DNA of 64,000 bases from Psammoneis japonica (GCA_008632985.1 QPGO01000092.1:1-64000); one strand, 5' to 3'; counted from the stretch's first letter, positions 11,833-44,719 are shown. The notes: generated by a model from the sequence alone, not told the origin. Numbers and translations: made by a program.

Positions 11833-12339
11833 GCAGGTGTGATGCAAGAACACGGGGAGCCCTCAACTGAGCTTTCTCTGCCCCAGAAGAGCAGGTCAAA
11901 TGCCAAAGGCCTCACAAGCAAGCACAGGCAGGTGGTGCAGCATCTGTGCACCTGTGACCAAGCTGTGTGACACCAGCTGCAAAAAACAACAGGAGGAAAG
12001 AAAAATGCTGTGCCCCTGCTGTTTGGGCAGCTGGCAAGACCGATGCCCCAAAGTTGTGTTTCAGGGGGGAAGCTGCTGAGGGCTGTTGGCACACCAAATG
12101 AATTGAACCAGTGGCTCAATTTTTGTGTGGGTGGGGGGAACACATCACTGAGTGAGATTCCACACTGGCACATTTTCCACACAAACACAAATTCACTGTT
12201 GATTTTTTTTTACACAACAAAAATTATGAAGAAAACAGTTTGCAGACAATTGCAGCATCACATCATCACCTTGTTTTGATGATTGCACAACTGTGACAGA
12301 ATTTATGACACAATGCATGTGAACATTTTTGAACAACAA

Positions 12340-13520: not shown

Positions 13521-13724
13521 CTCCCATCAAGACACAATGCCATTGACTGGATCCAGGACAACATCCATTCATGATGCTCAAGACAAGCCATGAAACAACG
13601 GAGCTCTGTGCAGGGTCACACACGGAGATGCACGGCTTGAAAATGTGGTTGGCGTGAGTGGCAAACCCTGCCAATGCTGGGTCAACTTTGCTGACTCGGA
13701 CTTGTTGTTGCACGTGCCTCTTCT

Positions 13725-13728
<4 letters not shown>

Positions 13729-13766
<38 letters not shown>
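13729..13766. repeat. (GA)19 microsatellite
   Basis: Direct read of the sequence. Confidence 0.95.
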
Positions 13767-13769
<3 letters not shown>

Positions 13770-14735
13770 ACGGACTTCGAAGGGTGCAAAGCCGATCGCC
13801 AGCTGGGGTTCATTGCAGTGTCAGTTCAGTTGAATGTGCAAATGACCTTGCAACTCCTTGTCAAACAACAAGAAAAAAAGATAGTGATCTTTGATGGAGA
13901 TTCTCATTTGCATCTGTGGTGATGAACGAAACACACGCACTGCCCGTCACACCAGGAATTGCATTTTGGTCGCGCACACGCAGCACACATTGCAAGCGCT
14001 CCTTTGCGAGAAGAAAGAGGCAGGTGGGGTTGTGGCAGCTTCTCTGTTAAAACCTCTAATGACAACTAGCTGTGGCAGCTGGTTACCTGGAAACTCATTT
14101 CATGCCAACTCGCACTTTGGTTGACTGCACAAGTTCATTCTCTCCCTTCTTCTTGCTCTGGTTCCTGGGCAGACTGCAGACGGGCACATGGTCGACATCA
14201 TTTTATGAAGCCATTGAGTGTCAACCAAGTGACAGTTGGAGCACAGGAACTTATCAGGCCTGGATTTCATCCGACGATATGATTCTCCTTCATCACTGAC
14301 GGCTGGCTTAGTTTCCTTCTTGGTCGGTTCCATGGAGATGGCAGTGGTCATTAGTCAGGTCAAAGGGTTCAAAGAGCACGGGCGCCTCAACACCAATGGA
14401 TGCGCGTGTGAGGTTTTGAACAGCAGAGCACTCTCTGAGAACGACAGTTGGTGTGTGTTTGAACTTGACCCTACCTTTTGTGATTGCGATGATGCTGTGC
14501 CGCCACACGCAGGAGCTTTGTTTCAATGAGAGGGCCGCGGTTGGTCAATAAACGATTTCATCACCTTTTTGGCATGAAGTTCTCATGCTTCTGCTCGGTT
14601 CAGTTCGTGCATTGGGGCGGGTGAATGAAACAAAAAGCTCAAATTGATCCGAGATTGTCATTTGAGTTACCTCGAAACGCGTTTCACTGTGATCCTGAAG
14701 TTCACGGATCTCTAGCTAGAGCTCTAGCTAGTTTG

Positions 14736-14975: not shown

Positions 14976-15088
14976 TTTTTGCCTTGGTCACAATTCAAGC
15001 ATTGCTTGAGGCCGAAAGTGATACGCACGGGCAACCCTCAATTCTATACCAGGATTGCTCTCCAGTGTGCAAAATTGTCGACCGCAAC

Positions 15089-16834
15089 ATGAAATTCGAA
15101 GGCGTCGACCCAACGCTTTTCAACTTTGCATCCGACGTTGTTGGTCTCGTGATAGAAGTCGCATTGGTGCAAACCATTTCGCATCTATACACTGTCGTTA
15201 TGAGTTGGCATCTCAAGCGGGGCTTCGAAATTCCCATCAAAGCTCTCGGATGGGTTCCCAACGATGCCTGTAATGCTGTAATGCTGCAATGCTCACGTTT
15301 CAGGGTTATGGCATTTTCAGAATCTCTCTACAGGTGTTTGTTCTTGTGTTGCTTTGCATTGTAGCCACCTTTTCGCACCCATTGGCAGACCTGGGACTTC
15401 ACTTTGTCCCCAGTCAGCAGGAAGGACCTGTTGATACTGGTCTTGAATTTATCCACGGAGAACCGCAACCCCCAGCGCATGCTGCAAACGGGTGGCGATC
15501 CAATCAATAATCGGAATCTAATTGCCCCCGCTGTCATTATGCAGAACCCAGAACTGGAAGGAAGTGGCCTGGATATCGTTCGCCAGCAGGTGAAGCTTTC
15601 CTCCTCCTTTGTATGGGCGTGGGAAACCATTGCTCTGGGTGAGTCACCATTGATCGAATCTTTGAGTGATTCTCAAGTTCGGGTGGATGCCCTATGGGGT
15701 GGTTTGCAATCGGTGTATTATGTCGGCCTCAACGGGAAGCCACTGGCACAGATAGACTTGGAAGTACCTCTAAACTGCTCAAGCACAGAAATGGTGACGA
15801 TTGAACAGCAAGAGGGAATAGATTTCTGGTGGGGGGAATCTGGAGTACGATCAACGGCACTTGTCCCGAACTGCACTTTCTCTGCGAGACGAGAGTCAGG
15901 GATCTTTGGCGACACTGTGGGCAAAGCTTCAATCTTGGAAAAAGCCAATATTTACTCGTTTGAGAACAAAAACGTCTTCGTGAAGGTTGGCGAGACCCTC
16001 CTGAACAAAAAATTCTGGGTTCCGCCTGAAGCAAAACGGCTTTCGCGTGATCGCGAAGACTGGAAGAAAGGCCGCTATATCGACGGAGTAGACGCTTTTC
16101 GTGTCGGCAATCAAGAAATTCCTCTAAATTCCGTTTTGCTTGCTTCAGGAAGAGAAGATATTGCTGAGCCGGGAGAGTCCGATCCTACCACGATCGAGCG
16201 TCGCAATTTTTACACTATGGTTGGAGAGGTTAAACAGGGATGGTGCCCGCCACGTCCCTCGCGTGGATTTGTAAACGATTCCACACAATGTGTGGCATTT
16301 CTTGAGCTCTCCTGTGAGACATTTTCCGAAGACTATCTTTCTCCGTTCCACTTGACACCGGCAAAATCAGTCTGCGAGATTATTAACTTTGACTTTGTGT
16401 GGGGCGTAGGATTTCAAGCTGACAGCGAGCTTGTCGCCGTCATTGCGGGGCTGGCCGCAAGAGTCCAACCCAACAGGTTCAACGGCGGCGAGCATCACAA
16501 TTTTATCGTGCACTCTCTTCTCGGTGCGATGTTTGCGCTTGGTACGCTCGAAGAGCGCTCCAGAGTTGAAGAAACTGTCGTCCCAGAAATCAATGGCGTA
16601 TATATTGTCTTCACAGCGCTTCCTGTCACTCTTGCCTTAGTGGGGCTCTTTCTAGCGTTCTTCGGGAAGAAGAAGACTGTTCCCGTTCCCAAAAGCGGTT
16701 GGGAGCTTCTGGTTGTTGGTCGTGAGGAAACTTGTCTTCCGTCCCGCGCTGACAAGAAAGCTAACTTTCCCGACAAGGACTGCAGCCTGATGTTCAAATT
16801 GGACAACGGGATTGGATCGATAGTTAGGCCGTAG
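15089..16834 (+). CDS. Uncharacterised membrane protein (N-terminal and C-terminal hydrophobic segments, Cys-containing middle); this copy has an 8-bp and a 1-bp insertion relative to its duplicate
   Basis: MKFEGVDPTLFNF... from ATG 15089; 476-aa ORF 15404-16834 with TM segment VYIVFTALPVTLALVGLFLAFF; the duplicate at 17230-18680 reads through the N-terminal part in one frame. Confidence 0.65.
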
Positions 16835-16892
16835 TTGTCTTTCTGTGTAAAAGCCCACCATTCATTTTGAAAGAACTTGCACACCTTACAGT

Positions 16893-17230
16893 ATTTCGCC
16901 TTACGCATAGTCAGATTGCTGCTTGAACTCGCACATTTGGGCTTGAGCTAAATCTCAAATCAAGTCTAAATAAAGAAACGTAGGGAGGCTTGTCCCACGA
17001 TCCGAAAGGTAGAAATGATTCTGAGCTATCATTACAATTCTTACGCTTGTAGATAGACTGATACTAGGGGAGCTGCTTGGTCAAGAAGAAAAGCACCATC
17101 ATCCGCAAATAGATGGCCGCAGTTTGGGATGCTGTGAAATTTAGTTTGCGTGTTGGGTGCAGCCACAGCTTTGCAAAAGAACTCTCGGCCCTTGTCAAAA
17201 GAACAAACGTAGTCACCTTCGGGCCAAATT
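16893..17230. repeat. Duplicated fragment of 31492-31828 (3' ends of the convergent 270-aa ORF and alpha/beta hydrolase)
   Basis: Minus strand encodes IWPEGDYVCSFDKGREFF...IPNCGHLFADDG...VSVYLQ, nearly identical to the hydrolase C-terminus; nucleotide match extends through the intergenic region. Confidence 0.9.
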
Positions 17231-18680
17231 TCTACACCAGGATTGCTCTCCAGTGTGCAAAATTGTCGACCGCAACATAAAACTTGAAGGCGTTGACCCA
17301 ACGCTTTTCAACTTTGCATCCGACTTTGTTGGTCTCATGACAGAAGTCACATTGGTGCAAACCATTTCACATCCACACACTGTCGTCATGAGTTGGCATC
17401 TCAAGCGGGGCTTCAAAATTCCCATCAAAGCTCTCGGATGGGTTCCCAATGATGCCTGCAATGCTGCAATGCTCACGTTTCAGGGTCACGGCATTTTCAG
17501 AATCTCTCTGCAGGTGTTTGTTCTTGTGTTGCTTTGCATTGTAGCCACCTTTTCGCACCCATTGGCAGACCTGGGACTTCACTTTGTCCCCAGTCAGCAG
17601 GAAGGACCTGTTGATGCGGTCTTGAATTTATCCATGGAGAACCACAACCCCCAGTGCATGCTGCAAATGGGTCACAATCCAATCAACAATTGGAGTCTGG
17701 TTGCCCCTGCTGTCTTTTTGCAGAACCCAGAACTGGAAGGAAGTGGCCTGGATATCGTTCACCAGCAGGTGAAGCTTTCCTCCTCCTTTGCATGGGTGTG
17801 GGAAACCATTGCTCTGGGTGAGTCACCATTGATCGAATCACATGGGTGGTTTGCAATTGGTGCATTTTGTCAGCCCCAATGGGAAGCCGCTGGTGCAGAT
17901 GGACTTGGAAGTGCCTCCAAACTGCTCAAGCACAGAAATGGCAACAATTGAACAGCAAGAGGGAGTGGATTTCTGGTGGGGGGAATCTGGAGTGCGATCA
18001 AAGGTGCTTGTCCCAAACTGCACTTTCTCTTTGAGACGAGGAGTCAGGGATCTTTGGTGGCACCATGGGCAAAGCTTCCATCTTGGAAAAAGCCAATGTT
18101 TGCCTGCTTGAAAAGAAAAACGTCTTTGTGAAGGTTGGCCAGACCCTCCTGAACAAATTTTTGGCTCCACCTGAAAACGCCTTTTGCGTGATCACGACGA
18201 CTGGAAGAAAGGCCGCTGTGTTGACAGAGCAGATGCTTTTCATGTCGGCAATCAAGAAATTCCTCTAAGTTCTGTTTTGCTTGCCTCAGGAAGCAAAGAC
18301 AAGATGTTGTTGAGCCGGGAGAGTCCAATCCTGCTGCAATCGAGCATCACAATTTTTGCACAACATGGTTGGAGAGGCCAAACAGGGATGGTGCCCATCG
18401 CGTCCCTCTCGCGGACTCATCAACAACTCCACACAATGTGTGGCATTTCTTGAGTTCTCGTGTTGGACTTTTTCCAAAGACCATCTTTCTCTGTTCCACT
18501 TGACACCAGAAGACTCAGTCTGCAAGATTGTCAACTTTGACTTTGTGTGGGGCATGGGATTTCAAGCTGACAGCAAGCTTGTCGCCGTCATTGCGGGGCT
18601 GGCCAGAAGAGTCCAACCCAACAGGTTTGACATCAACAAGCATCACGATTTTGTCGTGCACTCTCTTCTTGGTGAGATGT
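17230..18680 (+). pseudogene. Hypermutated, 3'-truncated duplicate of 15042-16532
   Basis: Colinear alignment; ATG changed to ATA; ~30-bp deletion near 17840; many TA->CA/TG and CG->TG/CA changes (GRYIDG->GRCVDR, ANIYSF->ANVCLL). Confidence 0.9.
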
Positions 18681-18699
18681 GACAAGAAAGAAGTGAAAT

Positions 18700-19960
18700 T
18701 TGTTGTCAGAAGAGCAGGTTGAAAAACTCAAGAAAATTGGATTCGAGTGGTGACCGTTGGAGAAAGAAAAGATCACAAAAGTCATGACAAAGAAAGGCGC
18801 AAAGCCAAAGAAGCAACAAGACAACAAAGATGAATCCTGGAACAAGATGCACACTGAACTTGTCAAGTTCAAACAGCTTCATGGGCACTGCAACCTGTCA
18901 AGGAAACACATGAATCACAAGCTTTGTCTTTGGGTGTGTGCCCAAAGAAGAAACCAAGAGAAAATGATCGATCAATGAATGGCTCAACAAGCTCAAGTCC
19001 ATTGGATTCAAGTGGTTGGAAAGCAATGTGGAAGATTGGAGCTTGATGTGCAAACAACTCGTCCATTTCAAAGAAGTTCACGGGCACTGCAATGTGTCCC
19101 ACAAAGATGAAAATCAAAAGCTGCATCTGTGGGTGCAACGTCAGAAGGACACAAAGCAAGCAACAACAGAAGAAAGAACCAAAAAACTTGAGTCTGTTGG
19201 ATTTGATCTGCCCAAAGACAAGGAAAGGACCCCAAAGATGGCAAGGACAATGAACCAAGTCAATGTCATTTTTCCTTTTTCATGCTCGCATTGCCAATCG
19301 CTTCTGGCACAATTGTCACTTTCTTGACAGAATGCCAAGCTTGAGAAAGACTGGAATGAAATCCTTGGTCAATGCATTGCATGCAAGAAAGCAAAGGATG
19401 CTGACCCCATGAATGTGAAAATGGAGCCAAAACTCTGTGGTTGGTTGCATGGTCAGTGACAAAAAATTCCAGAGGAAAGAGCTGTCCCCTGTTGGGATTG
19501 CGAAACTCAATTCAGCAGGGTTTGGTTGGTCCAAAGAGCAAAAATGGGACAACATGTTTGATCAACTCAAAACACACAAGGAAGTGCACTGAGATTGCAA
19601 TGTTCCAAGCAGGTCTGGCAAACTTGCAAATTGGGTTTTGACACAATGCATTTGCTTCAAGGACAATTTGTTGGATGATGACAGGGCTGAAAAACTGCAG
19701 TCCATTGGATTTGATTGGGAGAGAAAATCTGACATTTTGAACAATGCAGCGGATTCTCCTGAGGTCAAGAATGACGCAGAAGATTCTCCCAAGGTCAACA
19801 ACAGTGCAGCAGATTCTCCCAAGGTTGAGAACAATGCAGCGGATTCTCCCGAGGTCAAGAACAAAGAACAAAGCAGCAGATTTTGACAAAGACAAAGAGA
19901 ACATGGAGAATTGTTGGCAGCACATTTTGGATTCCATTGACAACATTGAACAGGTCTAAA
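18700..19960 (+). pseudogene. Decayed gene with several helicase-associated (HA) domain repeats
   Basis: WNKMHTELVKFKQLHGHCNL...LCLWVCAQRR, WSLMCKQLVHFKEVHGHCNVS...LHLWVQRQK...KKLESVGF, RAEKLQSIGFDW; stops and frameshifts present. Confidence 0.75.
19740..19859 (+). repeat. 30-bp x4 coding tandem repeat (NNAADSPEVK)
   Basis: Four aacaatgcagcggattctcc-like units. Confidence 0.9.
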
Positions 19961-22900
19961 TTGGTGTGTTGAGCCAAGAAGTGGCAAGATTGCAGTTTGG
20001 GGATTGTTTCATGCATTGTTTGGGGAAGAGATTGTTTTGGGTGACAAGTGCAGTGATTTCATTGTTGTGCAGATGCCCGGGAAGCAATGAACAACCTGGC
20101 ACTCAGACTGCTGTTGTGGTTGTTGAGGCACTGCCACGAAACCACAGCAGCAGCAGCAGCAGCAGTTGCACCAGCAGGAGCAGCAGCGCGCCGTTCACAG
20201 CAACAGCATTGGAGCAGCAGCAGTCGAAAACAGGAGCATCCATGTGCCGATCTCAACAATTGTGTCCACTGTCACCACTGCTGCTCCCACTTCTAATGCC
20301 GCTGCTGCTTCTGCTGCCGCAAATGCTGTTGCGACTTCTGTTCTTGCCGCTGCCATCTGCAGACGTTCAGCCAATTCATGCCACAAGTCATCATCCATGT
20401 CAAGAACCTGGTTCACTTCACAGTCATGAAGATCTTCTGAAAATTGCTCTGTCTCCAATTCTTCATCACAGTCCAAGAGAGCCACCTGGTCATGTGCTTG
20501 ATTGTCTTCTTTGTGCTCTGCAAGGCAGAGAACTGGTCGCAGTGGTTCACCTGGATGGGTGGTGGAGTGGTGCTCCTGCCATGACCCAAGACACTCTTCA
20601 CCTGCATTGGCCCTCATGTGAATTCTCTCTTCAACTGTTTTTCTGCTCCAACGTGCTTCTCTGAAGACAGATTGAACATCAAGGGACAGCCACACTCTTG
20701 AACATTCCAGCATTGCCAGAGAATCTTGGACTTGTCACCATTGCATTTGGAGAGACAAAAGTGTTTTAATTCTGTCACAGGAAGAAACTCATTGTCACTG
20801 CATGAACAGTGCCAACATTTCAAATTTTCCTTGCAGTGACCAAGGCAAATGTCCTCACTTGACTTCCATGCATTGATGAAGCAAGGCATTGCATTGAGGT
20901 TGTTTCCCACAAAAGTTGCATCCATGGCCCGCTCAAGAAGATCCAATCACTCAGTGAAGACATTCATCAACATTGCAACCACGCCCATGTGGCCCCCATC
21001 AACTTCATGTGGTGCACCTGCTTTTTCTTTGCCGAGAGAAACTGTTCTGTCATCAATCGTGTGAGCTCATTGTCTCCCATGCCCAAGCATTCCAGAGAGG
21101 ATTTGTTGATCGTGAAATGATTTTTCTTGCTGCACATCTTCAATCTTGCTTTCTGAGTTGTTCTTGTCCTCAACAGCATTCTGCACATGGGATCGTGTTT
21201 GAGGTGGAACTTCAAAGCAAGGTTCATTGAAAGCCTGGCCAGTGCTCTGGCAAAGTTGCAATGGCCACACACTTTCTTGATGAAGATCATTTTGGCGCAC
21301 TTCATCAAGAGCAAAATCTTGAAAAGTCACCTCGGTGATGCTGCACTTCCTTTTGGTGGCTGCAAAATTTCTGGATTCTTCTTCCATGCAAATGTCAAAC
21401 AACTTTGCACACAACGAAATCATTGGATTGCCTGTCATTGCAAAAGTGCTACAAAGGTCTTTCTTTTGGGTGATGGAGTGTTGCTTTGCATTCTCCTTTT
21501 CTTTTTTCTCCTTTGGACGGGTTCCAGTCCCAGACGGAACTCTGTGTGACATTTTGCCCGCAGAATTCTGCGTGCGAGCTCCACTGTAAATTTGTCAAGC
21601 AATGAAAATGTGAATGATCGCCAACAGAAAAAGAGGCAATTTTACGAAAGCATTGGTGTCTCCTCCTTCACACTTGGAGTTGATCCCAAAATGAGACCAG
21701 GCACAAATTAAGACCCGCGTGGGGCGTGGTGCAAAAATGCACAGAATTTTCTGTTGGTGAAAAAAATCAAGAGGCATCGCGTTCAAAACAGCATGATGAG
21801 AGCGTTCGATTGCCACCCTTTTTGCCCCCCAGAAAAATGCTTGGCCCTTGCGGGGCGCATTTGATCTCCAGCACTGAAATCACACATGTTTCTGTGTGGG
21901 TCTTAAATCACCACACCTGCCCATCCACATTGGCTTGTCAGACATTTTGGTTGTTGTGCTGAAACTCATGAACCAACCAGATTTGAAAAAGAGGGGAGGA
22001 TTTTTTTGTGACAAGTTCAATGAGATCTTTCACATCCATGCATGAAAAGTTGCATTCCATGCATGCAGAGAAATGTCAGTGGCTGTTGATCTCAGGTGGG
22101 TCTTGATGTGGGATTGACTCTGCTGGAGTGTGTCATCAACAGTTTGCCCCCGGGTGCATCCTGCAGCTCATTGAAGAACACACCCAGCGCATTTTCATTC
22201 TCACAAATGTTGAAAATGGAAAGCATTTGGCTTCGCAAAACAGGGAGCATGAAACAATTTTGTAGAATGTCACATGCAGAAATGCATGTGCATGACATGC
22301 GACACGATCCAAAAAACTGTTGATGTCACAGTTCAGCAGCACCCGCACAAGGTCCCACCCAGAGCTGGAGTGCATCTTGGTGATTGTCCCAACCTGTTTC
22401 CACAGGATCACTTGCATCAGGGTGTTTGTCCACCGGCAGTTTTGCAAGAAGAGATTCAAACAATTTTTGCCAATCCCAAGCAACCATCATGTTGCAACCC
22501 ATGTCTTCAATGACCTCACATTGAGCAAGTGTCAAATCTGGATGATGTTGTGGTCTGCGGTTTTCAAGCAACGACCTCTTGCCTTTTTTCGCCACCAGCC
22601 TTTGTGAATTTCACAACACAGCACTCCAACAAATCACTGGGACATTGCACATGAGTTTGTTCCAATTGACACATTCGTGCATTCAACAATTTGAACTTTG
22701 CACTGTCTCAGGCGCTCCATGTTCTTCTTCCACCTTTCTTCCCTTTCCAAATTTTCAAAGTCGTTCCCGTCCCAGAGGAGCCCAATGTTGTTGAGACACT
22801 TGACATGCCATGACAACAACCATCAACTGTTGACAGCCTTGGCCCTTCTAATTTTTTTAATGCTTTTGCACATGAAACAAAACAGGTTGCTCTTTTTGAC

Positions 22901-24986
22901 AGCGGATGAGCCGTTTGTTTCCTTTTTGACCACACACAACAACCACAGCAGTTGGGTTTTGCCCGTTTGGGGATTCCCCAAAATGGCAAGGGCAAGGGGG
23001 GAATTGCCTCACCCTTTTGGGGAATGCCCAGGAAATGAGGGTAATTTGGTGGGAAGGAACAACTGAAAGGGGCCAGGGGAAGGAACAAAAAATGAGTGCA
23101 GTGCGACAATTCCTGTCTCATTTTATGTGGGCGGGTGTGCTTTTGAAACATTCAACCAGAAAGCGAAAGCAAAGCCACGCTCTGCCGCCGCCGACCATGA
23201 TGGATGCATTGACAAATCAGCACAAAGCATCCCCTCATGGCAGAGCAAGGGAAGAATGAACATTGTCATTTTAAATCACACATGTTGATGTTGCTGACAC
23301 GCGGCTCCATTTTTGCCTCAGCCTTTGCTCTAGAGCCATTGTGGTTTGCATTTGTGACCACACAACACAAAAAGGAAAAAATGATGCAATGTGTTCTGTG
23401 CGTGAGACAGGTCAAAGGGAAGAACAAACACCATCAATCAATTTGCCATGCTTTCATTGACCATGTGCAGTTCCCATTTTGCCTCATCCTTCACACTGGA
23501 TGCCTTGTGGCTTGCCTTGCTGAATGCATGACAAAAGAGCGATCTAAATGATCCCCTTCATTCTGCACATGAGATGTGTAAATTGGAAGAATGAGGGTGA
23601 CTGTTCAATCCACCATGTTGTTGTTGTTGGCTGTGTGTGGCTTTGCTTTTGCCTTGCCTTTGCTGCGCACCTTGTGGCTTGCATTTGTGGCTGCATGACA
23701 AAAGAAAAACCAACGACTGACGACTCAATCGCACCAGTGTTCTGCACATGTGCAACCACATTTCATCTTGTGTTTTGTGCTGCAGATCCCGCTCAATCAA
23801 TGTCATCGATCACATTGAACGGTGTGTGGTGATTGACAGACAACAGCCAACATAAATGGGGTGCGAACGTGCCATGGCGTGTTGCCCATTTTTGTTGCGG
23901 TCAGTCGATTGTCTGGCTCCAATGTCCCGGCCCGTAGAAGGCACAGAAATGCACGAGAAGGGAAGCACGGGGAATTGCCAATGCACAATTTTTTGTTCAT
24001 GCATGGAGCATGTGTGTGACGAAGTGCAATTTGCTGCAATTCCCTGGGAAATCATGCTTCCCGTGGAAAATCACGGCAAAAGGTGGCAATCCCGGGGAAT
24101 TTTGGGGAATCCTGCAGCAAACCAAACTGAGGGCAACAACTCGATGCAACAGTTGAAGGAGCCAATCCTGTCCACATCCAGCTCAAAAAATTCATTGTCT
24201 TTCCAGCACTCTTTGGGACTCATGCCACAACAGTTGACTTCTTTGTCCTCTTTTTCTGTTTCGCACTCTGACATGTCTTCCAAAGCTTCTGCCACAAACA
24301 AAGTCCCTTGTTTCTTGAACTTTTCTGGGGTGATCCCACGAATCTTCAAACTGTCACAAACAAGCAGCTCTTCTGCTTCAAGCACAAGAAGAGGCTGGCT
24401 TTTCCACTGGGGTGGTGTCAAAGAAGGAGAACTCATGAGATGACATCATGCGCGGTTGTGCTCACAGAACAACCAACAAGCAACATCAATTGCAGCATGA
24501 CTTTTTCAAAAGACAAAAACGATTGTTGACAATGAATGCACTCAGTGCATCTGCTTTGCCTGCTGCAGCAACAGCAGCTCTCCTCTCCTCTCTGTTCTCT
24601 GGTGGCTGCTCTAGAGAGTGCAGCAGAGTGGAGAGTGCCGCACTGCAGCCACCAGAGCAGAGCAGAGAGTGCCAAGAGAATGAAACAAGACAATGGAGCG
24701 AATTCATTGTGACCCTGGTAGATTCTTAGACTTTTCGCTTTTTGTCTCATCAACAACAATTTCTCGTCCAGTGCAGTGCTGCTGGGAACAATGTAAGACA
24801 TGACATTTGGTGCTTTTAAAATTCACTAAAGTGGACATTGTGCAGTTGATGCAGTCATGATTAGAATGACTTGCTGTGGGGCATTTTTCAATGACTTGTT
24901 TGCAGTCATTGCGAACAAACCGAACAACATTGTGTACATTGATGAGTGACGAAATGCTCAAGAAAAGCAAAGAGCGTGGAGAAACA
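19960..24986. other. Hypermutated domain 3, middle part: unidentified decayed coding remnants, mostly minus strand
   Basis: TA-depleted; protein-like but Tyr-free fragments at 20614-21552, 22092-22595 and 24071-24436; no family recognised. Confidence 0.5.
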
Positions 24987-24991
24987 ACTTG

Positions 24992-25175
24992 TGCAAGATC
25001 CAGCTTGAGATGACTTGACAAAAGTTGTGGGAGAACCAAGAAGAGACCCAATCAGCGCAATTGCTGATCGGAACTGACTTCCAATGGCTTCCTGAATGTC
25101 CAATGTGTCAGTTGACACACGTGTGTCAGAGAGGGCACACTCGGTCATAAAGCGCACATGTGCCTGTCTCATTCA
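24992..25175 (-). repeat. 3' LTR (hypermutated copy)
   Basis: Aligns end to end with 30523-30704; adjacent to the PPT. Confidence 0.92.
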
Positions 25176-25286
25176 CTCTTCCCCTCCATGGTGCAAGGAA
25201 CACGCACACCATTGGAACCACTTGACTAAAATTCAAACCCAATGTGCACGCACGGAGAAGGGAACCCAGATGTTGGGAAGAAACCC

Positions 25287-28200
25287 TCAACTCCGATGCG
25301 GCACCACGCGGCGAATGTCAATTCGCTCAATGACGTGCGGTGCTCGCAGCACCGAAACAGTCCCGTTGGCGTGGACTTGTGCAATTCGAAACGGACCACA
25401 GGCTCGTTCTTCCAACTTTGAAGGATCCACCGACTTGATTGATGCATCTTGACCAACTGGATGATCGCAGGAATGGCGCTTCGCATTCTGTCGTCGCAGG
25501 TTCTCGTCGATCAACACTTGTCGGTTGGCTTGTGTCGCAGCAAGGTCGGAGACAACAGGCAAGTCCAAAATCACATCGCATTGAAACACTGGAGCTCCAC
25601 TTGAAACACCCACAGACCTTGAGTGGGAGCATCGCAAAGCACAAGAGGCTGCAGCAAGGGCATCGTCCACAATCTGCTTGGCCTGTTGAACATTTAAAGG
25701 TGGGTCAGCGACAACCACAGTGCGCAAGATGTTAGCTGCTGTCTGGTGCATTCATTCACAAACAGAGTTGGCTGCAGGATTTTGAGACGTCGTCGGCGCA
25801 TCAGCAACACCCGCTTGATTTAGCAGCATTTGGAACTCCCAACCAATGAATTCTCCACCATTGTCATGGATGCATCGATTCGGTCTGGGACAACAAGCCA
25901 ACCAAAGATTGTGAAACTTGTTGGTCACATGCTGAGAAGTTTTGTCATCAGCGCGCACGAGTTCAGTCAATCCAGTGACAGCATCAATGCAAGTGAGAGC
26001 GCTGAATTCAATCTCTTGGTCTTGAATCGGCATTTTCCACGGTCCAATGAGATCAACCGCTGCTTCCATCCACAGAGCTAAAGGTGCTTGACGTTGAGGC
26101 AATTCTCCACATCCAGGGCCCAGTTGTTTAAATCGTTGACACGCATTGCAAACAAATTCGTTACAACGTCGACGCAATGCAGGATGACACACATGAGTCC
26201 GAATGCTTTCATGCAATCGCACAACTCCACAATGGCCCAACACGTGATGGTGCCATGCAATGGCATCCGGCAACAACGCAGCAGGAATGCAAATTTTCCA
26301 GGCTCCAGATGGATCATTCAGATGCAAACAATGACAAATCAGGGGGTGATGATTCACAATCTTGACCACAAATTGCTGCGGATTTTGTTGTCTTTGCTGG
26401 TTCAGTTGGAGGTCTTTGAACTGGAGCTGTTGTGTCCTTGGCATCACAGTGGGGTTCGGCATTTCGTCCAGCGTCGGGTGATTCAAAAAGCATTCAAACA
26501 ATTCAGGCTCATCAAGCAGAGAGGAAAAGGCGGCGCGAGACTCATCAGAAGGATCAATGGGAGCACGGCAACACTTGAACCTGCAAGCGCCCAACTCCAA
26601 ATCTTCCTCTTCCTTGGCCCTGCTTAGTTCTTTGGAATCCAACTTTCAAAATGAACAATTTTTCCTTTGCGTTTGCTGCTTGGCCCAAGGCTCTTCCCCT
26701 CCAAAGGCGGTCCATGCATGGGAGACGAGAAAAACAATCGGCGAGCACGTCATCCTTGCCTTTGACATGTTTAAAGGCAGGCGCGAAATCTTTGAGGAAC
26801 AGTCGCCAACGAAGGACGCGTTGTGCATTCAAAGCATGAAAGGTGAGATTTTTGTGATCAGTGTGAACAGCAAAATCAGCACCAAGCAACATTGAGCGAA
26901 ATTCCTTGAAGCACATGATGACGGCCAGGAGTTCTTTTTCCATTGTTGAGCAATTGTGTTGAGCCGCCGAGAGCTTCTTAGACCAATGCGCCACAGGTTT
27001 GCCATCTTGAATGACAGCGGCGCCCATCTGGCAGTCTGATGCATCGGTGTAGACATGGAATGGTGGGTTGTGGTTGGGGTGGGCCATCAACGCCATCACT
27101 GCCTTCTTCTCCTTGAACGCTTTCTGACATGATTCTGTCCATTGGAAATGACTCTTGCCTGTCAATTCAGTCAGAGGTGCAAGCAGGTGAGAACGGCAAG
27201 GCCACATGTTACGATGGCAGGTTGCTGCACCGAGAAACGACCGGAGCTGAGCAGTGTCCCGTGGAGGTTGCATTCGTGGGATCGCCTCGACCTTCTTTTT
27301 CCACAGTTTGGTGCCAGTTGGAGCAAGCCAATGCCCTGGAAAATCGGTTTCTTGGACACACCACTCGCATTTCAACGGGTTGACTTTCAAACCATTCTCC
27401 TCAAGACGATGTGGCACCTTGTCAAGACGAGAGAGATGGCAATCAAAGTCAGTGTCAAATGCGCCAATGTCATCAATGTAAGTTTCAACATCCAAACCAT
27501 GCAGGATCTTTTCAATGATGGACTGAGCAATGTCTGGAGCTGGCTTCAATCCCACAGCCACACGACAACACTGGAATTTCCCGCACGGAGTTGCAATTGT
27601 AGCGAGCTCCTTGCTTTCATCGTCCAACTCCAAATTGCAGCAGAACACAGTGAGATCCAGTTTCGTGAAGAACTTGTAGCCCGCTCTCCGCTGCAGCACA
27701 TCTTGAACAACCGGTGAAGGACACACTTTTCGCTTGAGGACCTTGTTGAGCTCCCGAAAATTGGATGCCCATCGCACTCGGCCATCCTTCTTCGGAGTGA
27801 CAAAGGTGCCAGCTGCCCATTCCGCAGGTCCACATGGTCGCAGTGCGCCAAGATTCACCAAATGCTTCAACTCCTTTTTGAATGCTTCTTCATTGACTCC
27901 AGCAACAGGAAATGGTTTTGAGTGACAAGGAATGGCATTTTCATCCACTTCAAGGTGCACCTTTTCATGAGGACAGTGCCCCAAAGTTCCATCAAACAAA
28001 GTTGAATGTTTTTCCAACACCGTCAACAGCTTCTTCTTTTGCTCTTCTGTGAGATGGTCTAAGTTCCGAACCACTTCCGCTGGATCCGTTGCTTCATGCT
28101 TGGCGTCGAGCACACAGTTGTCACATCCATCATCGCATCCATGGTCCGACTCGTCTTCATGATCTTCATCAAATTCATCCATTCGATCTAAAGCCACATG

Positions 28201-28755
28201 CCAATTGCAGGATTTGGACCAATGACGTGGTTCCTTCATTGGGATCACACGGTCCAGCCATCGCAGTGTCCTCGTGTCGCAGTTCAGGTTGAGGCCAATC
28301 TTGTCCAAGAAATCTTGACCCAAAATGATGTCACACGCACACGGAGCATCGAATGCGTGAGCCACACAGCCGTCAATCCTCCCAGTTTTGTTGAATTCCG
28401 GCAACACGACATCACTCAAGGCCACCCAACGACCCAATTGGAAAGGACCTGCAACGGTTTGAAAAGCTCGGACTCCATGTTCGTCAACAGATGGCGCGGC
28501 TCCTCGAGGCAAAACTTGGGACGAAATCACTGTGTGAGAACCACCCGAATCGAACAAAACACGCATCACACGATTCGACTCATGCCGTTGGATTGATTTT
28601 GCAACAAGTGGTGCAGATGGGACCAATGTGGTGCACGAGACTTGCGAGCCCATTTTGGGGAGAGGAGTGTCATGTTCAAATGCATCTTGATCAAACACAT
28701 CCCCCTCTTCATTCACGCAATTTTCTGTGGTGTTTTCAAATTCAACAGGCAACAA
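25287..28755 (-). pseudogene. Gypsy pol remnant: protease, reverse transcriptase, RNase H, integrase
   Basis: RVLFDSGGSH (PR), PKKDGRVR and YIDD (RT), TDASD and EKELLA (RH), HHHVLGH..C..C, VDLIGP, HDNGGEF, NSVCE and GPF (IN); frameshift near 26600 and in-frame stop at 25752. Confidence 0.9.
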
Positions 28756-28899
28756 TTCATCAGGATTTTCAAAACAATCAAAAGCAAAACATTCATCATT
28801 TCATTCAGGCAAAACACAATCATTTTCTTCAACAAATGCTTCTCTCACAGGCAATTGGGAGCACTCAGCTCCGGAGCATTCAGCTCCTTCTTCTCAGAA

Positions 28900-30200
28900 C
28901 TGCCAAGGAAACTGCCCGTCCAGCTGAAACCTCACCACACCTCCGCATCATGGAGGGCCTCGTCCGATCACATCGAAATGGTGCACATCACCACCAGGAG
29001 CTTCTCAAGCCTGGTTGTCATTGTTCACATTGTCTGCTTGAGCAGCACATCCGTCGGCCTGTCCTTGGCCTCCACGGTTGTTGTTTTCATTGCAACAATG
29101 TTGACCACCACCTTGGTTGCCATTGTTGTTTTGATTTCCGTTGTTTTCATTGTGACAATGTTGACCACCACCTTGGTTGCCATTGTCACTTTGATTTCTG
29201 TTGTTGTTGTTGCAATGGGTGCCACGACCTCCTTGGTTCTGGCTGCCACGACCACCAAAGCATCCACCGCCTCCACGGCCTTGACCACGGCCTCCTTGGA
29301 AACGACCTCCGCCTCGACCTCCACCGCCACGGCCTCCTCCTCGACCGCCACGGTTCTGAGGCCCACGACAGTTGGGGTTGTTTGGATTGTCATGACACTG
29401 GCCCCACACATGTCTTCCATGGTGCCACAGGACCGGACACGGATCACCTGCCTTCGGTTGGCCCTTGCCATCCTTCTTGTCACGGTTGCCCTTTTTGTCA
29501 CTGGAGTTCCCTCTGTTGCCATTGCTGGACTTGCGTTTCTTGTTGTCTTGACCATCGGCAAACACCTTCTCGTTGCTCATGCAGGCTTGGATGTCCACCA
29601 TAGAATCTGCAACGAGGTTCTTGCCCGCACGAATGCAGGGCTGCTGCCAGGTCAAAGGAAAGGTGCAAAAGATGACATTTTTCTGCTCCTGCTCTGTAAG
29701 TGCAGGAACGGTTCCAGGCAAACGGTCAGCATGACGAAACAACATTTCCATGCAATCAATGTGAGTTCAGATTCTGCTGAGTGAGGCTTTTTGCAAGCAG
29801 GCAAATGCATCTTCATTGTGTCGCGAGCTGTCGGTTTCACGCAGTGCAAACAACAGGCTGAGACAGCCTGATCAAATCGAGCTGCCGTCCGTTGATTCTG
29901 TTGGATGCCCGCGGCAACATTCTGCCATTTTGCTTCCGCAGTTCCTTGGAGACAATCCTCAAAAGCATCAAACAACTCTGTTCCGGCATCATAATCCAGC
30001 TGTCTTGCCACCTTCCGGAGCCTGTCCTCCACGTGCAACAATGATTCAATTCCATGCTCTCCTGTGAAAATGGGACACAGTTTTGAAAGTTCAGCACCAT
30101 CATCAAAGGTTTGAGTGAGCTTCACTTCCTGCAGTTCAGAATCCACGAATTTGGTTTTACATTCAATGCACACTTTCTCCAAGGCTTCTTGACACATGGC
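28900..30200 (-). pseudogene. Gypsy gag remnant with zinc-knuckle-like motif, RGG tract and 60-bp x2 repeat (29081-29200)
   Basis: ORFs 29652-30287 and 29005-29751 linked by a frameshift; CPVLWHHGRHVWGQC followed by RGGRGG; lies between the 5' LTR and pol; ends approximate. Confidence 0.75.
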
Positions 30201-30522
30201 GATGAACAATTTCAGCGATCGAACAATCAACAATCCACAAGACAAACGAAATGAAACGTTCCCAATTGATCCACACAACGAGAACAATCAACAACCAAAC
30301 AACAACGAATTCAAGAGCAGCAACACGAGATTCACGTTCAAACAAACGCTGCTCCGAATCACCAATTTCACGAGCACAATCACGCTGCGATTCTGATCGA
30401 CTTCGAATGAAATTTTCTGCACGAGCTCGCAAATAAATTTTCTCTCTTCTCGATGACACTCTTCGCGTTGTCATAAATTTGATAATGTAATGAACAAGCT
30501 ATAACAACGACTGTAATTACAG

Positions 30523-30704
30523 TGCAAGATCTAGCTTGAGATGACTTGATAAAAGTTGTGGGAGAACCGAGAAGAGACCCGATCAGCGCAATCGCTGATC
30601 GGAACTGACTTCTAACGGCTTCCTGAATATCTAATACGTTAGTTAATATACATATATCAGAGAGGGCACACTCGGTCATCAAGTACATGTGCCTATCTCA
30701 TTCA
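30523..30704 (-). repeat. 5' LTR (largely unmutated copy)
   Basis: Aligns with 24992-25175; retains TA and CG sites; followed by TSD ACTTG. Confidence 0.92.
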
Positions 30705-30769
30705 ACTTGGTACTTTCTCCGTGATAAGACACAAGACACAAGACGCAAAGCACCGGTACCACAAGCAAC

Positions 30770-31582
30770 ATGAGCGACGTCAAGAAAGGAGAATACGAAT
30801 CTGCCTTTGACATCTATCCAGATTTGGATCTAGTGGAGCCAGTTTTGGAGCCAATGCCTGACTATGAAATTGTCAACCGATTGATGCGACGTACAATGAA
30901 AGAAAGGAACGACACTTTCAGAGAAAATCTGAAGAGAAATTACGACTTGCAAGAGGTGTTTCTATTAGTATCTGATCCAAACAATGAGATAACTTTAGAG
31001 AGGCTGATGACTGACAGATTGTTGCTGTCTGGAATCAAGAGATTTGAGGAAGAGTTTGTGAACATAGTGGAGTTTTCCATTCGTCAATTGGAAGAAATGA
31101 AAGATTTGAGCGAGCGTGGCCTCCTTGTCAATGATGCAATGGTAGAAGCAAGCAACTTGTGCTTTCTCGTAGAAGAAGGGGAGATGCCGATGTCTTTTTT
31201 TCGAGCAGACGTTCAAGTCAGGAGACTGTACAAATTTCTAGAAAAATGGAACTCCACGTCCATGGATGTGCTGTTGAACAAAATGGACAAATGGCGAAAG
31301 ATTCAGAGAGGTCAATTGACACTCGACAAAAACGAGGAACTGCCTTTCCATTTTCTGAGACCATTTGACATTCAAATTGTCACTCCAATCGAAGCAGGGA
31401 GAGAAGTCATGGAGGAATCTGAAGCGAAAACAGAGGTCGAAGCTAGGGCCCTAGGACACTTGGATCAGCCAATGAAGATGAGGAAATTGGCATTTCGCCT
31501 TAAGCATAGTAAGATTGTGCTTGAACTCGCACATTTGGGCTTGAGCCAATCTCAAATCTATGGTCTAAATAAAGAATCGTAG
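30770..31582 (+). CDS. Hypothetical 270-aa charged, probably helical protein
   Basis: Clean ATG-initiated ORF with normal composition; no recognised domain. Confidence 0.65.
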   Translation: MSDVKKGEYESAFDIYPDLDLVEPVLEPMPDYEIVNRLMRRTMKERNDTFRENLKRNYDLQEVFLLVSDPNNEITLERLMTDRLLLSGIKRFEEEFVNIVEFSIRQLEEMKDLSERGLLVNDAMVEASNLCFLVEEGEMPMSFFRADVQVRRLYKFLEKWNSTSMDVLLNKMDKWRKIQRGQLTLDKNEELPFHFLRPFDIQIVTPIEAGREVMEESEAKTEVEARALGHLDQPMKMRKLAFRLKHSKIVLELAHLGLSQSQIYGLNKES

Positions 31583-31638
31583 GGAGGTTTGTCCCACAAT
31601 CCGAAAGGTAGAAATGACTCTGAGCTCGCTTACAATTC

Positions 31639-32628
31639 TTACGGTTGTAGATAGACTGATACTAGGGGAGCTGCTTGGTCAAGAAGAAAAGTACCATCAT
31701 CCGCAAATAGATGGCCGCAGTTTGGGATGCTGTGAAATTTAGTTTGCGTGTTGGGTGCAGCCACAGCTTCGCGAAAGAACTCTCGGCCCTTGTCAAAAGA
31801 ACAAACGTAGTCACCTTCGGGCCAAATTATCAAGCGTTCCGCATCACCCGACGGATCAAGGTCCTTGGTGCAGAGGAACATGGGATCTTCATCATTCAGG
31901 AACGTGTACATCATGGAGCGATAATGGTTGGATGGCGTGGTCTCGAGCTGTTCCCGATACACACCTTCAAGAAAGAACTTTGGAATTGGGTCCTTCTTCT
32001 TGTGATTGGGCGTACCCATATCACGAAAACAGGTCTTGACATCGGCACGGCTTTCGAAGCAAAAGTGATTTTTTCGGTCGTTTACAAAATCATCAACGAA
32101 TTGGTCACTCAGGCATGCCCGTATTGCAGGAGAAACAAGGACTACCCTGTGGATCTTGACGCGCGGCTCTGGATGATGCTTCAAAAAGTACACCAGTGCG
32201 CCCCCCAAGGAATATCCAACCATGTGGCATTCTTCAACGTTTACAGCCTCCAGAAAGTCAAAGGCCATTTGCAAAATCTCGGCTTGCGAAGCGTGCTGAT
32301 AGGAATCTGAAAACGCGCGCTGTTTGTCACTTCCATGTCCCGGCAAATCTGGAGCCAAGATACGATAGGAGTCGCCCAAATTCAGGGCCGTGACAAAGGC
32401 CGCAAAATTCTTGGCTTCGTCCGTCATACCGTGAAAGAAAACAATCGTAGTTACTTTTCCTTTACTATTTTTGGGTTCGCGTTCATAGTAATGCACGGGC
32501 AACCCATTTCGTCGCAAAACGACCGTCTTGGGGACCAACTGAGCTTCCTTCAAAAGCTGGCTGCTGGCCAACCGAAGGAGTCTTCGACCCACTGCAGCTT
32601 CGACACGTCGAGGGACGACTCGCACCAT
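31639..32628 (-). CDS. Alpha/beta-fold hydrolase (lipase/esterase-like)
   Basis: FHGMTD oxyanion motif, PDLPGHG, nucleophile GYSLGG, C-terminal IPNCGH. Confidence 0.9.
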   Translation of the reverse strand: MVRVVPRRVEAAVGRRLLRLASSQLLKEAQLVPKTVVLRRNGLPVHYYEREPKNSKGKVTTIVFFHGMTDEAKNFAAFVTALNLGDSYRILAPDLPGHGSDKQRAFSDSYQHASQAEILQMAFDFLEAVNVEECHMVGYSLGGALVYFLKHHPEPRVKIHRVVLVSPAIRACLSDQFVDDFVNDRKNHFCFESRADVKTCFRDMGTPNHKKKDPIPKFFLEGVYREQLETTPSNHYRSMMYTFLNDEDPMFLCTKDLDPSGDAERLIIWPEGDYVCSFDKGREFFREAVAAPNTQTKFHSIPNCGHLFADDGTFLLDQAAPLVSVYLQP

Positions 32629-33469
32629 AGTTCATTCTCTCTTTTAAGAGTACGGAACGACTAATACCTTAGGAGCACGAAACGAACGGAGACTGTGGGA
32701 ACTTTCGGTCGTGTGTTTCTTCTTATCTTTGCTCATGGCAATTGAACCGTCACCTTGAGCCACCGCACGCGCCGCACCGTAGCCACCAGTACAAACGCAT
32801 CGTAGAGTACATCGCCACGTCCAAAATTTCAAATTTCTCCCTCCGACCCAGACCTCCGCGCGGTTCACGCAATACAACAGCGCTTGAACTCGATCTACTC
32901 TCTCTACTGAGAAGCTAGAAGTAGGGCCCTCTCTAGTAGCTAGAGAGTCTCCAGTAACATGGCTCCACGGATTCGCATTGCTGTCGCGATGATGTGACAC
33001 TTTGAAACTACGAAAAGCTGCACAGCATGGAATATCTTTAGAAAGCGAGAGGAAACAAAACTGAGCTTCGCAACTTGGCTAGTGGCCAGGCCATGGAACA
33101 CAAGGCTCCTTCAACTTTCGTGTGCCAGTCCACTGCACTGATGTTTTCTTCCTCAATCAGTCTCTCTCTAGAGAGAGTCATTGCTACAATAGGCAGCAGA
33201 GCTTCTCGTTTACTCCAAACCGCCAGTATGCTGTTTGCTGTGGGATTCACTGTTCACTTCTGTGCTGTTTTCCGGCAATACGGACAAGGGACACAATTGA
33301 GGAATTCTCCCCTCGTGCAGCAAAGACATTCGTTCGTCACCATGCCAGTGCAACAAACATGTTAGACGACGGACGACAAATGTTTACGATATATATTACT
33401 ATCATCCAGAATACGATTGTGTTTATGAAACAAGAGCGACCTCGATGCAGAATTAGAATTTCTCTCTTC

Positions 33470-36325: not shown

Positions 36326-36649
36326 GTTGTTGCGAACAGAAAAGGACGTGCTGTTGAGACAATAAAATCAATAGATCGTCACTGTCACGATTTCAGGCCT
36401 ATGTCGAATTGTAGCGACAGGATCGGTCACGGTCAATCAGAGTACACGGCGTGATCAAAGGGAGATGTTAGTTACGGGTACATTTGCCCATTGTGCGTTC
36501 TCCGTTTCCAGTTTCTACCTGCAACGGTAACTTTTGAAATGTTGGAAACCCGGATGTACGGCACCAACTGTATCGACGCACGGACGCCGTCAAACAAAAA
36601 GAAACTAAAGCAAGAAAGCGCTCACAACATGCTGTATGATAGCACCGCC

Positions 36650-37522
36650 ATGATGATTGACTCTTCGTTCCTCTCGGTGCTGCTCTTGTTCGCTACAGTG
36701 TCCTTAACTGCTCATGCAGCTCATTCTCGTCGTCGTCCGACCGTAGTGGTTCGACAAGCGGAGCCTCGATATGATCGATCCATTACAACTTTTAGTGCCA
36801 ACGGGCGATTGCAACAGATTGAATACGGGATGGAGGCATCGAAACGGGGAGAAACAATAGCGGCCTTTTGCAACAGTGATGACGCGGTTATTGTCACGGT
36901 TGCATCGTCATCCAAGGTGTATCGATTGGACAATCACGTATACCTCTTTACCTGTGGTTTGGTGGGCGACGGCCGTGCTCTGGCGAGCGCGCTGCGAACC
37001 GAGTGCCAGCGATTTCGTCTCTCCAATGGGCAAGCACCAACGGTTCGAAATGTGGCTCGTGCTGCTGCACAAATACAACATGATTTGACACGAACCGGTG
37101 GAAGCAGACCGTTAGGGCTCACGGCAATGGTTGTAGGCATTGACGAGATTGGTGAACTTCAGCCTCGATTGTTTCAGACGGACCCTGGAGGGATTGTGGA
37201 GGAATGTCGGTATTGTGCAGCTGGCAAAGGGCGAGACATGGCAATGGAATGTTTAAAAGACGTAGAAGCACAGTGGTTGAGCAGTAAAGACAACGAAGCG
37301 ACTAGAGACTCAACTGTGGGAGATTTAGCACACGAAATGGCTTTGGCAGGCATCAAGGCAACAACGTCCGTCCTGCAAGAAATCAAGGAGCAAGATACGC
37401 CCAAGGCAGTAGACGTTTGGATTCTACAACCTGATAAAGGACACAGAGGGAACACAAGAGCCGTGTGCATAAAGAACGTGACTGCCGAAAATATTGACGA
37501 GTTGCGAGAAAGCCTCGAGTAG
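36650..37522 (+). CDS. 20S proteasome alpha-type subunit with N-terminal signal peptide (probably periplastid-targeted)
   Basis: Alpha signature YDRSITTFSANGRLQQIEYG; GLVGDGRAL; RPLGL; LFQTDPGG; preceded by FLSVLLLFATVSLTAHA. Confidence 0.85.
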   Translation: MMIDSSFLSVLLLFATVSLTAHAAHSRRRPTVVVRQAEPRYDRSITTFSANGRLQQIEYGMEASKRGETIAAFCNSDDAVIVTVASSSKVYRLDNHVYLFTCGLVGDGRALASALRTECQRFRLSNGQAPTVRNVARAAAQIQHDLTRTGGSRPLGLTAMVVGIDEIGELQPRLFQTDPGGIVEECRYCAAGKGRDMAMECLKDVEAQWLSSKDNEATRDSTVGDLAHEMALAGIKATTSVLQEIKEQDTPKAVDVWILQPDKGHRGNTRAVCIKNVTAENIDELRESLE

Positions 37523-40165: not shown

Positions 40166-41218
40166 TTTCTGATGCCAGATACCAAACCGGTACGCCTTTG
40201 TCGTGCTACGCTAAATGCGATTTTGGTGTGGATGATGCAGAAGTGAGGTGTGAGGTTCGAAACAGTGCGTTGATGGTGTGGGATTTGTGCCCTCGCCGAT
40301 GCATTATCGGCAGGAAATCGATCATCACGAAGGGACATTTTGGGATTTCCGATTAGACAAGACCACCATAAGTCTCAACAACTGTGACAAAACGGATATT
40401 GTGTTGAGCATAAAAGTTATGTGGAATAGACATATTGTTGGCTTTCCGATTCTCACCAGACATTCAAAAAGCACTTCAAGACACATAAGAACAGATTAAT
40501 CTGGAATCTACGACTAAAATTATGTTTAAGAATGAAAATGACTGAAATGATCAATACCTAGATGACATGTGGAAAAGACAAGTTGTTGGGTTTCCTCTCC
40601 TCAGCAAACACAATACGACCGATAAATCTGAAATCTACGACTAAAATAAAGGTCCTAAGTAAAATTGGCATTGATCTCATGCGGACATTGACATTGGTCG
40701 TGGAATATCACAACGTCATCACTATCGTCCACTGTACTGTACCGGTAGTATAGTAGTACCGTGCCGTACACTATAACTTCTCTAATAGCTCTAGCTAGAG
40801 AGAGTAGGAATAGGTTTTCCTAGAGCGAGAGAGAGGGCTACCGCACTCTACTCTCTAGCTCTAGAGGGCCCTAGTAGCTAGTAGAGTAGAGAGTAGGGCC
40901 CTAGAGATAGGGAGTCACCAAGCAGACCAAAAATATGGAAGTTAAGAGAAAGAGACAAGAGACACTGTCTCAAGGCTTTCTAATGCCTTGCTTAGCCGGT
41001 AAGTGCTGTAGCCTGTGAGCGAACCAGACACAAATTCTGTTCCGACTAGCCACATCTACAGTAATTGATAGAATTACGCGCGAACCCAGAGTGCTCTACC
41101 GAAAAATAATCCGCTCGCAATTTTGTACGTCCACTGCTGCTGCTACTGCCATGGAATCTCAGTGGTTGGTTCATTCGTGATCCGAAGAGAAGTTTGCAAA
41201 ACTGCCACTGACAACTTC

Positions 41219-44588: not shown

Positions 44589-44719
44589 TTGTGGCTTACA
44601 AGCCACCACTTCCAACAGTTCGAGCTCTACCCTAGAGGGGCTCTCTAGTAGTACTCTAGAGTGCAGCTCTAGCTCTATTAGAGAGTACATAGGCCTCTAC
44701 TCTCTAGAGAGAGATTACC

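Follow-up and report, generated by a model that had tools for sequence, protein, structure and literature searches.

How do the two long terminal repeats (LTRs) of a single retrotransposon insertion come to differ at every TpA dinucleotide that one of them carries, and at little else besides CpG? This question is raised by a predicted Ty3/gypsy-type element at positions 24992-30704 of a 64,000-nt stretch of the diatom Psammoneis japonica (GCA_008632985.1 QPGO01000092.1:1-64000), referred to here as the window. The answer that we consider probable is that the element and neighbouring DNA underwent TpA hypermutation after insertion, in place and within a limited region, with CpG loss alongside. 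The left LTR lies inside this region and the right LTR outside it; position, not copy identity, decides which LTR mutates.

The LTR pair and the mutated domains

The LTRs and the bases duplicated at the target site are located as follows.

24987-24991, unstranded: left target-site duplication ACTTG, the same five bases as 30705-30709
24992-25175, minus strand: left LTR, i.e. the 3' LTR of the minus-strand element; 184 nt, 1 TpA, inside mutated domain 3
30523-30704, minus strand: right LTR, i.e. the 5' LTR; 182 nt, 14 TpA, 8 CpG, outside mutated domain 3
30705-30709, unstranded: right target-site duplication ACTTG, identical to the left copy

Both LTRs have TG..CA ends, with ACTTG directly outside each. 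Global pairwise alignment of 24992-25175 against 30523-30704 returned 161 identical columns, 21 substitutions and one 2-bp indel, and confirmed the LTR asymmetry described in the initial annotation of this locus. Each of the 14 TpA sites of the right LTR reads CA (8) or TG (6) at the aligned position of the left LTR, so that, as had been claimed, none survives there; the earlier count of 13 clean transitions plus one site in an indel region was right as to the 14 losses, but all 14 are clean and the indel lies beside the last. Among the eight CpG sites of the right LTR, three are kept, three read TG and two read CA, in agreement with the 5/8 losses first reported. Only one further substitution had been listed, a CA/CG site that was found again (left LTR CG at 25121, right LTR CA at 30652); a single transversion (25149 A, 30680 C) had gone unlisted. 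Mutation is thus context-specific, as proposed, with 14/28 bases changed within TpA compared with 2/138 outside TpA and CpG (Fisher p = 5e-11), and 5/16 changed within CpG (p = 1e-4). The scarcity of differences outside the two dinucleotides, together with ACTTG flanking both LTRs, also bears out the claim of one insertion. Naive LTR divergence is 21/182 (11.5%), against 2/138 (1.4%) outside TpA and CpG; dating by LTR divergence is therefore inflated about eightfold at this element, an overestimate that the initial annotation had anticipated.

Observed/expected dinucleotide ratios, calculated in 500-bp windows over the whole 64 kb (CpA/TpG being the mean of the two ratios), delimit three mutated domains.

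2523-5079, unstranded: mutated domain 1; TpA 0.00-0.08, CpG 0.12-0.42, CpA/TpG 1.7-1.9
7464-14047, unstranded: mutated domain 2; TpA 0.00-0.08, CpG 0.03-0.55, CpA/TpG 1.7-2.05
17235-30433, unstranded: mutated domain 3; TpA 0.00-0.21, CpG 0.15-1.13, CpA/TpG 1.3-1.9

All three are sharply bounded, with TpA generally at 0.00-0.12, CpA/TpG roughly doubled (mostly 1.5-2.05) and CpG reduced, down to 0.03-0.15 over domain 2 in the overall profile; in the rest of the window TpA stands at about 0.3-0.9 and CpG at about 1. The domains, 21,813 bp in total, contain 70 TpA, compared with 1,577 in the remaining 42,187 bp. Domain 3 holds a host-derived duplicate (copy B, below), a nest of repeats and the gypsy element; besides the left LTR and the body of this element, it takes in 7.7 kb leftward of it. 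Its right border falls within the element: the sequence is TpA-free through 30433, TpA returns at 30434, and eight TpA are found in the 89 bp before the right LTR. Since the border lies about 90 bp short of the right LTR, the LTR asymmetry is a border effect. The initial annotation had stated that mutation hits one copy only; the LTR change is indeed one-sided, but this is no rule of the process, being set by the position of the domain border.

Direction of the change and a second control pair

A host segment present twice provides a second comparison of the same kind.

15042-16532, plus strand: duplicate copy A, outside the domains; 43 TpA, 84 CpG; unmutated comparator
17230-18680, plus strand: duplicate copy B, inside domain 3; 6 TpA, 36 CpG; 86% identical to copy A
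31492-31828, plus strand: continuation of copy B past the domain, with a 94% match to 16893-17230; TpA and CpG kept; negative control

The 43 TpA of copy A read CA (16), TG (16) or TA (5 kept) in copy B, and its 84 CpG read CA (29), TG (21) or CG (28 kept); changes in the reverse direction number one for TpA and five for CpG. At the start of copy B, only a few bases precede the first conversions. The control segment, which lies outside the domain on both sides, keeps 15/17 TpA and 11/13 CpG, and 8/14 of its substitutions are transversions. Copy B being mutated and copy A untouched, the process is not confined to transposon sequence and spares the homologous partner. Foreign origin was shown for the gypsy element only, and the host-derived duplicate in domain 3 is mutated too.

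Taken together, 15042-17230 and 17230-18680 plus 31492-31828 describe a host segment of about 2.2 kb in tandem duplication, the second copy of which is split by a 12.9-kb repeat nest. One contig from run X2 joins 18680 to 31563 by 431 letters, exactly as many as the matching piece of copy A has, and continues for 1.1 kb, so that a version without the repeat nest exists. For an alternative version at 17.2-18.7 kb, an independent second haplotype was considered and rejected, the sequence being that of copy A or of its allele.

An alignment of two sequences gives no direction, and CA/TG against TA is also the pair produced by repeat-induced point mutation (RIP); the direction was therefore tested in the coding body of the element, which comprises the following.

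25176-25187, minus strand: polypurine tract (minus-strand purine run), adjoining the 3' LTR; read by eye
25293-26684, minus strand: integrase region, H2C2 zinc-binding and rve core; stops within the frame, which is shifted relative to the reverse transcriptase frame
26554-28800, minus strand: open frame of protease, reverse transcriptase and RNase H; 14/20 conserved Tyr now Cys or His
28801-30522, minus strand: presumed gag and 5' leader; no Pfam hit

Conservation was scored over 327 columns shared by at least 80% of 25 homologs, 20 of which are Tyr. At these 20 the element keeps three and carries Cys at nine, His at five and other residues at three, as expected if TAY codons became TGY or CAY. 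Other conserved residues are retained (Gly 26/27, Ala 14/14, His 8/8, Cys 5/5), and Tyr makes up 0.4% of the element protein compared with 2.8-4.6% in the homologs. The further changes found in excess, i.e. Val to Ala (4), Leu to Pro (3), Ile to Val (5), Thr to Ala (3), Met to Val (2) and Asn to Asp (2), fit the prediction of T to C or A to G at TpA. The element interior contains 29 TpA in 5,347 bp (observed/expected 0.08). Comparison was made with 79 related elements from metagenome loci (80 kept of 283); in 79/79 the TpA ratio lies between 0.45 and 1.08, and no second TpA-depleted element was seen among the loci surveyed. Together, the Tyr test and these normal relatives indicate that the body lost its TpA rather than being born TpA-free. 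From its sharing of the mutated domain with the body, the left LTR would be the changed copy, and the direction first proposed, TA to CA/TG, is upheld.

The same pattern was found in one database gypsy pol protein, P0057, which comes from another public source (its locus is not among the 80 retained) and is 56% identical to the element pol. At 18 Tyr columns P0057 keeps three and carries Cys at nine and His at four, compared with 22/23 and 17/18 Tyr kept by two control homologs; its composition is 0.8% Tyr and 7.2% Cys plus His. The process has thus left traces elsewhere.

The two strands are about equally affected (8 CA to 6 TG in the LTR pair, 16 to 16 in the duplicate pair, and nine Tyr to Cys against five Tyr to His), which points to double-stranded genomic DNA as the substrate rather than a transcript. 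Outcomes in the duplicate pair showed no significant strand clustering (36 runs compared with 41.7 +/- 4.5 expected, p = 0.12), and for neighbouring events of different origin the outcomes agreed in 22/39 cases (p = 0.25); processive single-strand editing common to the TpA and CpG changes is accordingly unsupported. Loss of TpA exceeds loss of CpG in both pairs, at 14/14 against 5/8 for the LTRs and 32/37 against 50/78 for the duplicates, where only sites reading TA/CG or CA/TG were counted. The losses of the young LTR pair, though small in number, stand far above the 1.4% background and suggest bursts rather than clock-like decay.

Surviving TpA is strongly biased to YTAR, with densities relative to the outside of 0.355 for TTAA and 0.25 for CTAA/TTAG, while survival is poor for ATAC/GTAT (0/226), GTAC (0.015) and ATAT (0.02). 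The bias suggests that the process prefers an A with a pyrimidine after it and least favours an A with a second A after it. Over the two control pairs, a pyrimidine followed the changed A in a ratio of 29:17, compared with 25:21 for the unchanged partner A, which is no significant excess (p = 0.53).

Assignment of the element to the Ty3/gypsy type follows from its predicted order of protease, reverse transcriptase, RNase H and integrase. The minus-strand Pfam hits run RVT_1, RT_RNaseH, Integrase_H2C2 and rve, a DSGG protease motif lies upstream of the reverse transcriptase, and tblastn with five homologs is collinear with the element pol; the LTRs, the target-site duplication and the polypurine tract also fit. 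With its frames on the minus strand and the purine run next to the left LTR, the element has its 5' LTR on the right and its 3' LTR on the left. The pol frame is shifted once and contains stops, so this copy is defective. The nearest database proteins to pol are at most 69% identical, with named diatom sequences among them, and tblastn of five gypsy pol proteins matched only this element in the window.

Plus-strand open reading frames (ORFs) of 402 and 395 aa, located at 28395-29784 and in other parts of the domains, are antisense to the element and match no Pfam family. Such frames most likely arise as artefacts once TpA is lost: stop triplets inside the domains number 499 TGA, 33 TAA and 19 TAG, and TpA-free DNA, lacking two of the three stop codons, gives rise to long spurious ORFs on both strands.

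Several other features of the domains and their surroundings were recorded. At the right border of domain 1, a 163-bp tandem pair (5154-5474) is 95% identical. Direct repeats of about 700 bp, 70% identical, lie within domain 2 at 9585-11830, possibly as relics of an old LTR element. Within domain 3, 21536-22669 is a very high-copy repeat (summed word depth about 25,000-28,000 compared with about 38 for unique sequence). Between the right-LTR flank and the copy B continuation, 31000-31499 is moderately TpA-poor, with seven TpA (observed/expected 0.18), without a strong CpA/TpG excess. Short intergenic patches rich in TpA (observed/expected 1.0-1.3) occur at 40501-41000, 44501-45000 and 46501-47000, and probably represent AT-rich intergenic or intronic DNA. 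A Pfam scan of 14 ORFs in the remaining parts of the domains gave no match. Ordinary host genes with normal dinucleotides encode an alpha/beta hydrolase (31639-32631, minus strand), a proteasome alpha subunit (36455-37522, plus strand), a multi-domain acetyl-CoA carboxylase (47843-54836, plus strand) and a MutS homolog (56406-59676, minus strand). The acetyl-CoA carboxylase fragment shares 72-77% identity with diatom enzymes, which marks the host as a diatom.

Mechanism and competing explanations

The gypsy element inserted first, and hypermutation at the level of DNA came afterwards, over a region from about 17235 to about 30433 that covers the duplicate, the repeat nest, the left LTR and the element body. 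Nearly all TpA in this region became CpA or TpG, i.e. A:T to G:C transitions on either strand, and the same region lost much of its CpG to TpG or CpA. By analogy with the proposal made for the alga Bigelowiella natans (below), the most likely chemistry would be deamination of the A after T in DNA by an enzyme resembling tRNA-adenosine deaminases. The tRNA target A34 follows a conserved U33, and adenine deamination would therefore fit a tRNA-adenosine-deaminase ancestry. We infer that cytosine methylation in this silenced region led to the CpG loss, and that the process in its entirety is a genome defence that cripples mobile elements, here by turning Tyr codons into Cys and His codons.

The alternative that survives best retains the process and changes its chemistry. 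The thymine of TpA might instead be modified, e.g. to hydroxymethyl- or formyl-uracil by an enzyme of the TET/JBP type, and then mispair with G. In dinoflagellates, the hydroxymethyluracil of the DNA is concentrated at TpA, and formyluracil gives rise to T to C changes. Sequence does not distinguish T to C before A from A to G after T, TpA being its own reverse complement. The sole published proposal, found in a preprint on Bigelowiella natans, is adenine deamination (Mettrop et al., bioRxiv 10.64898/2026.01.13.699255), and we regard the thymine route as rather unlikely, though it deserves to be kept in mind.

Far less probable is an artefact of assembly or base calling, in which the modified bases of silenced repeats were misread as CA/TG by a long-read caller. 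The sequencing technology is not on record, and a modification domain would also affect both strands and have sharp borders. Contigs from run X1 nevertheless reproduce 18065-21617 (3,553 nt) and 24083-25020 (938 nt, into the left LTR) with no differences, and likewise 30650-31674, from the right LTR into its flank. The word depth of the matching contigs is 32-38, and exact assemblies of 31-letter words are not expected from noisy reads. These exact contigs argue against consensus or base-calling error, as does the Tyr to Cys/His pattern of P0057, which has another source.

The two LTRs could also derive from different elements, joined by recombination or misassembly and never identical. The family is highly repeated, its summed word depth being 2,300-3,700 compared with about 38 for unique sequence, which suggests that the LTR exists in tens of copies, and contigs with LTR ends joined in other arrangements do occur; sites where family copies differ in X1 comprise 959 transition and 167 transversion places. 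Against such a junction, the pair is flanked by an identical 5-bp ACTTG and differs at only two of the 138 bases outside TpA and CpG, and contigs span both the left flank with the left LTR and the right LTR with the right flank without a difference. A composite origin appears slightly less credible even than the artefact.

Still more improbable is RIP-like C to T mutation at CpA on the right LTR only, with the left LTR and a TpA-free body ancestral. The observed CA/TG against TA is the pair seen in fungal RIP, and the two LTRs by themselves do not set the direction. Such a body, however, would have originated without Tyr at 14/20 conserved Tyr positions, while 79/79 related elements have normal TpA; furthermore, the right LTR and its flanks are at the TpA level of ordinary window DNA, and in the duplicate pair it is the ordinary-DNA copy in which TpA sits. 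Least credible of all is ADAR- or APOBEC-like editing of the RNA or cDNA ahead of integration. ADAR-type enzymes do favour A after U, and retroelements are among their known targets (10.64898/2026.01.13.699255), but the LTRs of a new insertion share one template and would share edits, which these do not; flanking non-element DNA and the host-derived duplicate are mutated as well, and the strands are equally affected.

Several points weigh against in-place TpA hypermutation with CpG loss, or narrow what it covers. The ancestral state of the LTR was inferred and not read directly from other genomic copies. Run X1 may be the assembly's own sample, in which case it rules out consensus error but does not represent an independent individual. 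CpG density recovers from about 30200 whereas TpA is absent to 30433, and the CpG loss may be unrelated. Nine ORFs of domains 1 and 2 have no Pfam hit. Beyond the right LTR, an ORF at 30728-31582 has neither Pfam hit nor homolog; a host promoter shielding the right LTR was dropped as a candidate for this reason. The assembler may have set two haplotypes in tandem as copies A and B, one of them with a hemizygous 12.9-kb nest; the process would then be allele-specific and spread in cis from the nest, which would alter the story, not the signature. Lastly, the evidence is sequence-based.

Relation to known systems

Only one precedent is known for targeted A:T to G:C hypermutation of integrated DNA, the 2026 preprint on the chlorarachniophyte B. 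natans. In mutation-accumulation lines of that alga, two integrated viral regions showed 231 changes, of which 230 were A to G or T to C and fell without exception on TpA, at about 1000-fold the genomic rate; its genome carries 124 clusters depleted in TpA and enriched in CpA+TpG, in which reverse transcriptase and DDE domains are enriched, and DNA adenine deamination by an ADAT2-like enzyme was proposed (10.64898/2026.01.13.699255). Clusters were defined there by Rho TpA <= 0.43 and CpA+TpG >= 1.52 over three or more 1-kb windows. All three domains of the present window pass these thresholds, with CpA/TpG taken here as the mean of two ratios, which may differ slightly from the formula of the preprint.

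In both systems, TpA becomes CpA/TpG on either strand through A to G or T to C changes, and does so in sharply delimited regions. They differ in host, a diatom (stramenopile) here and a chlorarachniophyte (rhizarian) there, and in degree, with TpA depletion near saturation here (0.00-0.12) compared with 0.45 in their giant-virus region. CpG loss co-occurs here, whereas CpG, diatoms, LTRs and retrotransposons all go unmentioned in a term search of the preprint's main text, which describes no CpG changes (10.64898/2026.01.13.699255). Furthermore, the LTR pair and the duplicate pair of the diatom show action in place with no requirement for repeat identity. De novo events were seen in B. natans, while the process described here is known from one assembly and contigs.

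Like RIP of ascomycete fungi, the diatom process inactivates mobile elements by dinucleotide-specific transitions, skews CpA/TpG relative to TpA and inflates LTR ages. RIP, however, creates TpA and the process here removes it; accordingly, TpA/ApT of the repeats is 0.08-0.09, with no TpA excess. RIP also mutates both duplicates, while here only the in-domain copy of each pair was changed, a distinction already drawn for the LTRs in the initial annotation, and the border falls within the element rather than at the end of homology. The conversion of CG to TG/CA, confined to the repeat domains (50/84 in the duplicate pair, 5/8 in the LTR pair), resembles 5-methylcytosine decay, which would account for the CpG part only. 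CpG methylation of transposons is known from diatoms. APOBEC3 and ADAR editing in animals is likewise deaminase-type, context-specific hypermutation of mobile elements, but those enzymes edit cDNA or RNA before integration, strand-asymmetrically and with the LTRs alike, unlike the symmetrical change of integrated double-stranded DNA plus flanks seen here. No report of such a process in diatoms was found in the literature searched, most subscription journals being outside its reach.

A more far-reaching scheme may be entertained, albeit tentatively, since we judge it more doubtful than not. Diatoms might possess a DNA-editing defence directed by chromatin domains, which would rewrite TpA and CpG to TpG/CpA in bursts soon after an element lands, spread in cis over unique DNA on one haplotype and stop at borders. 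Such a defence would be a position-based counterpart of RIP with the opposite chemistry, could use one dual-specificity deaminase, and would be common to stramenopile and rhizarian lineages.

As natural controls, the LTR pair and the duplicate pair preserve the states before and after mutation. They show that the process works in place on chromosomal DNA, with limits set by position and not by repeat identity, and that it can spread into host sequence. Mutated elements escape homology-based annotation. The diatom is a new host lineage, and a new target class, for TpA-erasing hypermutation, and the same signature near saturation in a diatom suggests that the system is widespread among marine algae. 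As diatoms are genetically manipulable, the question becomes testable.

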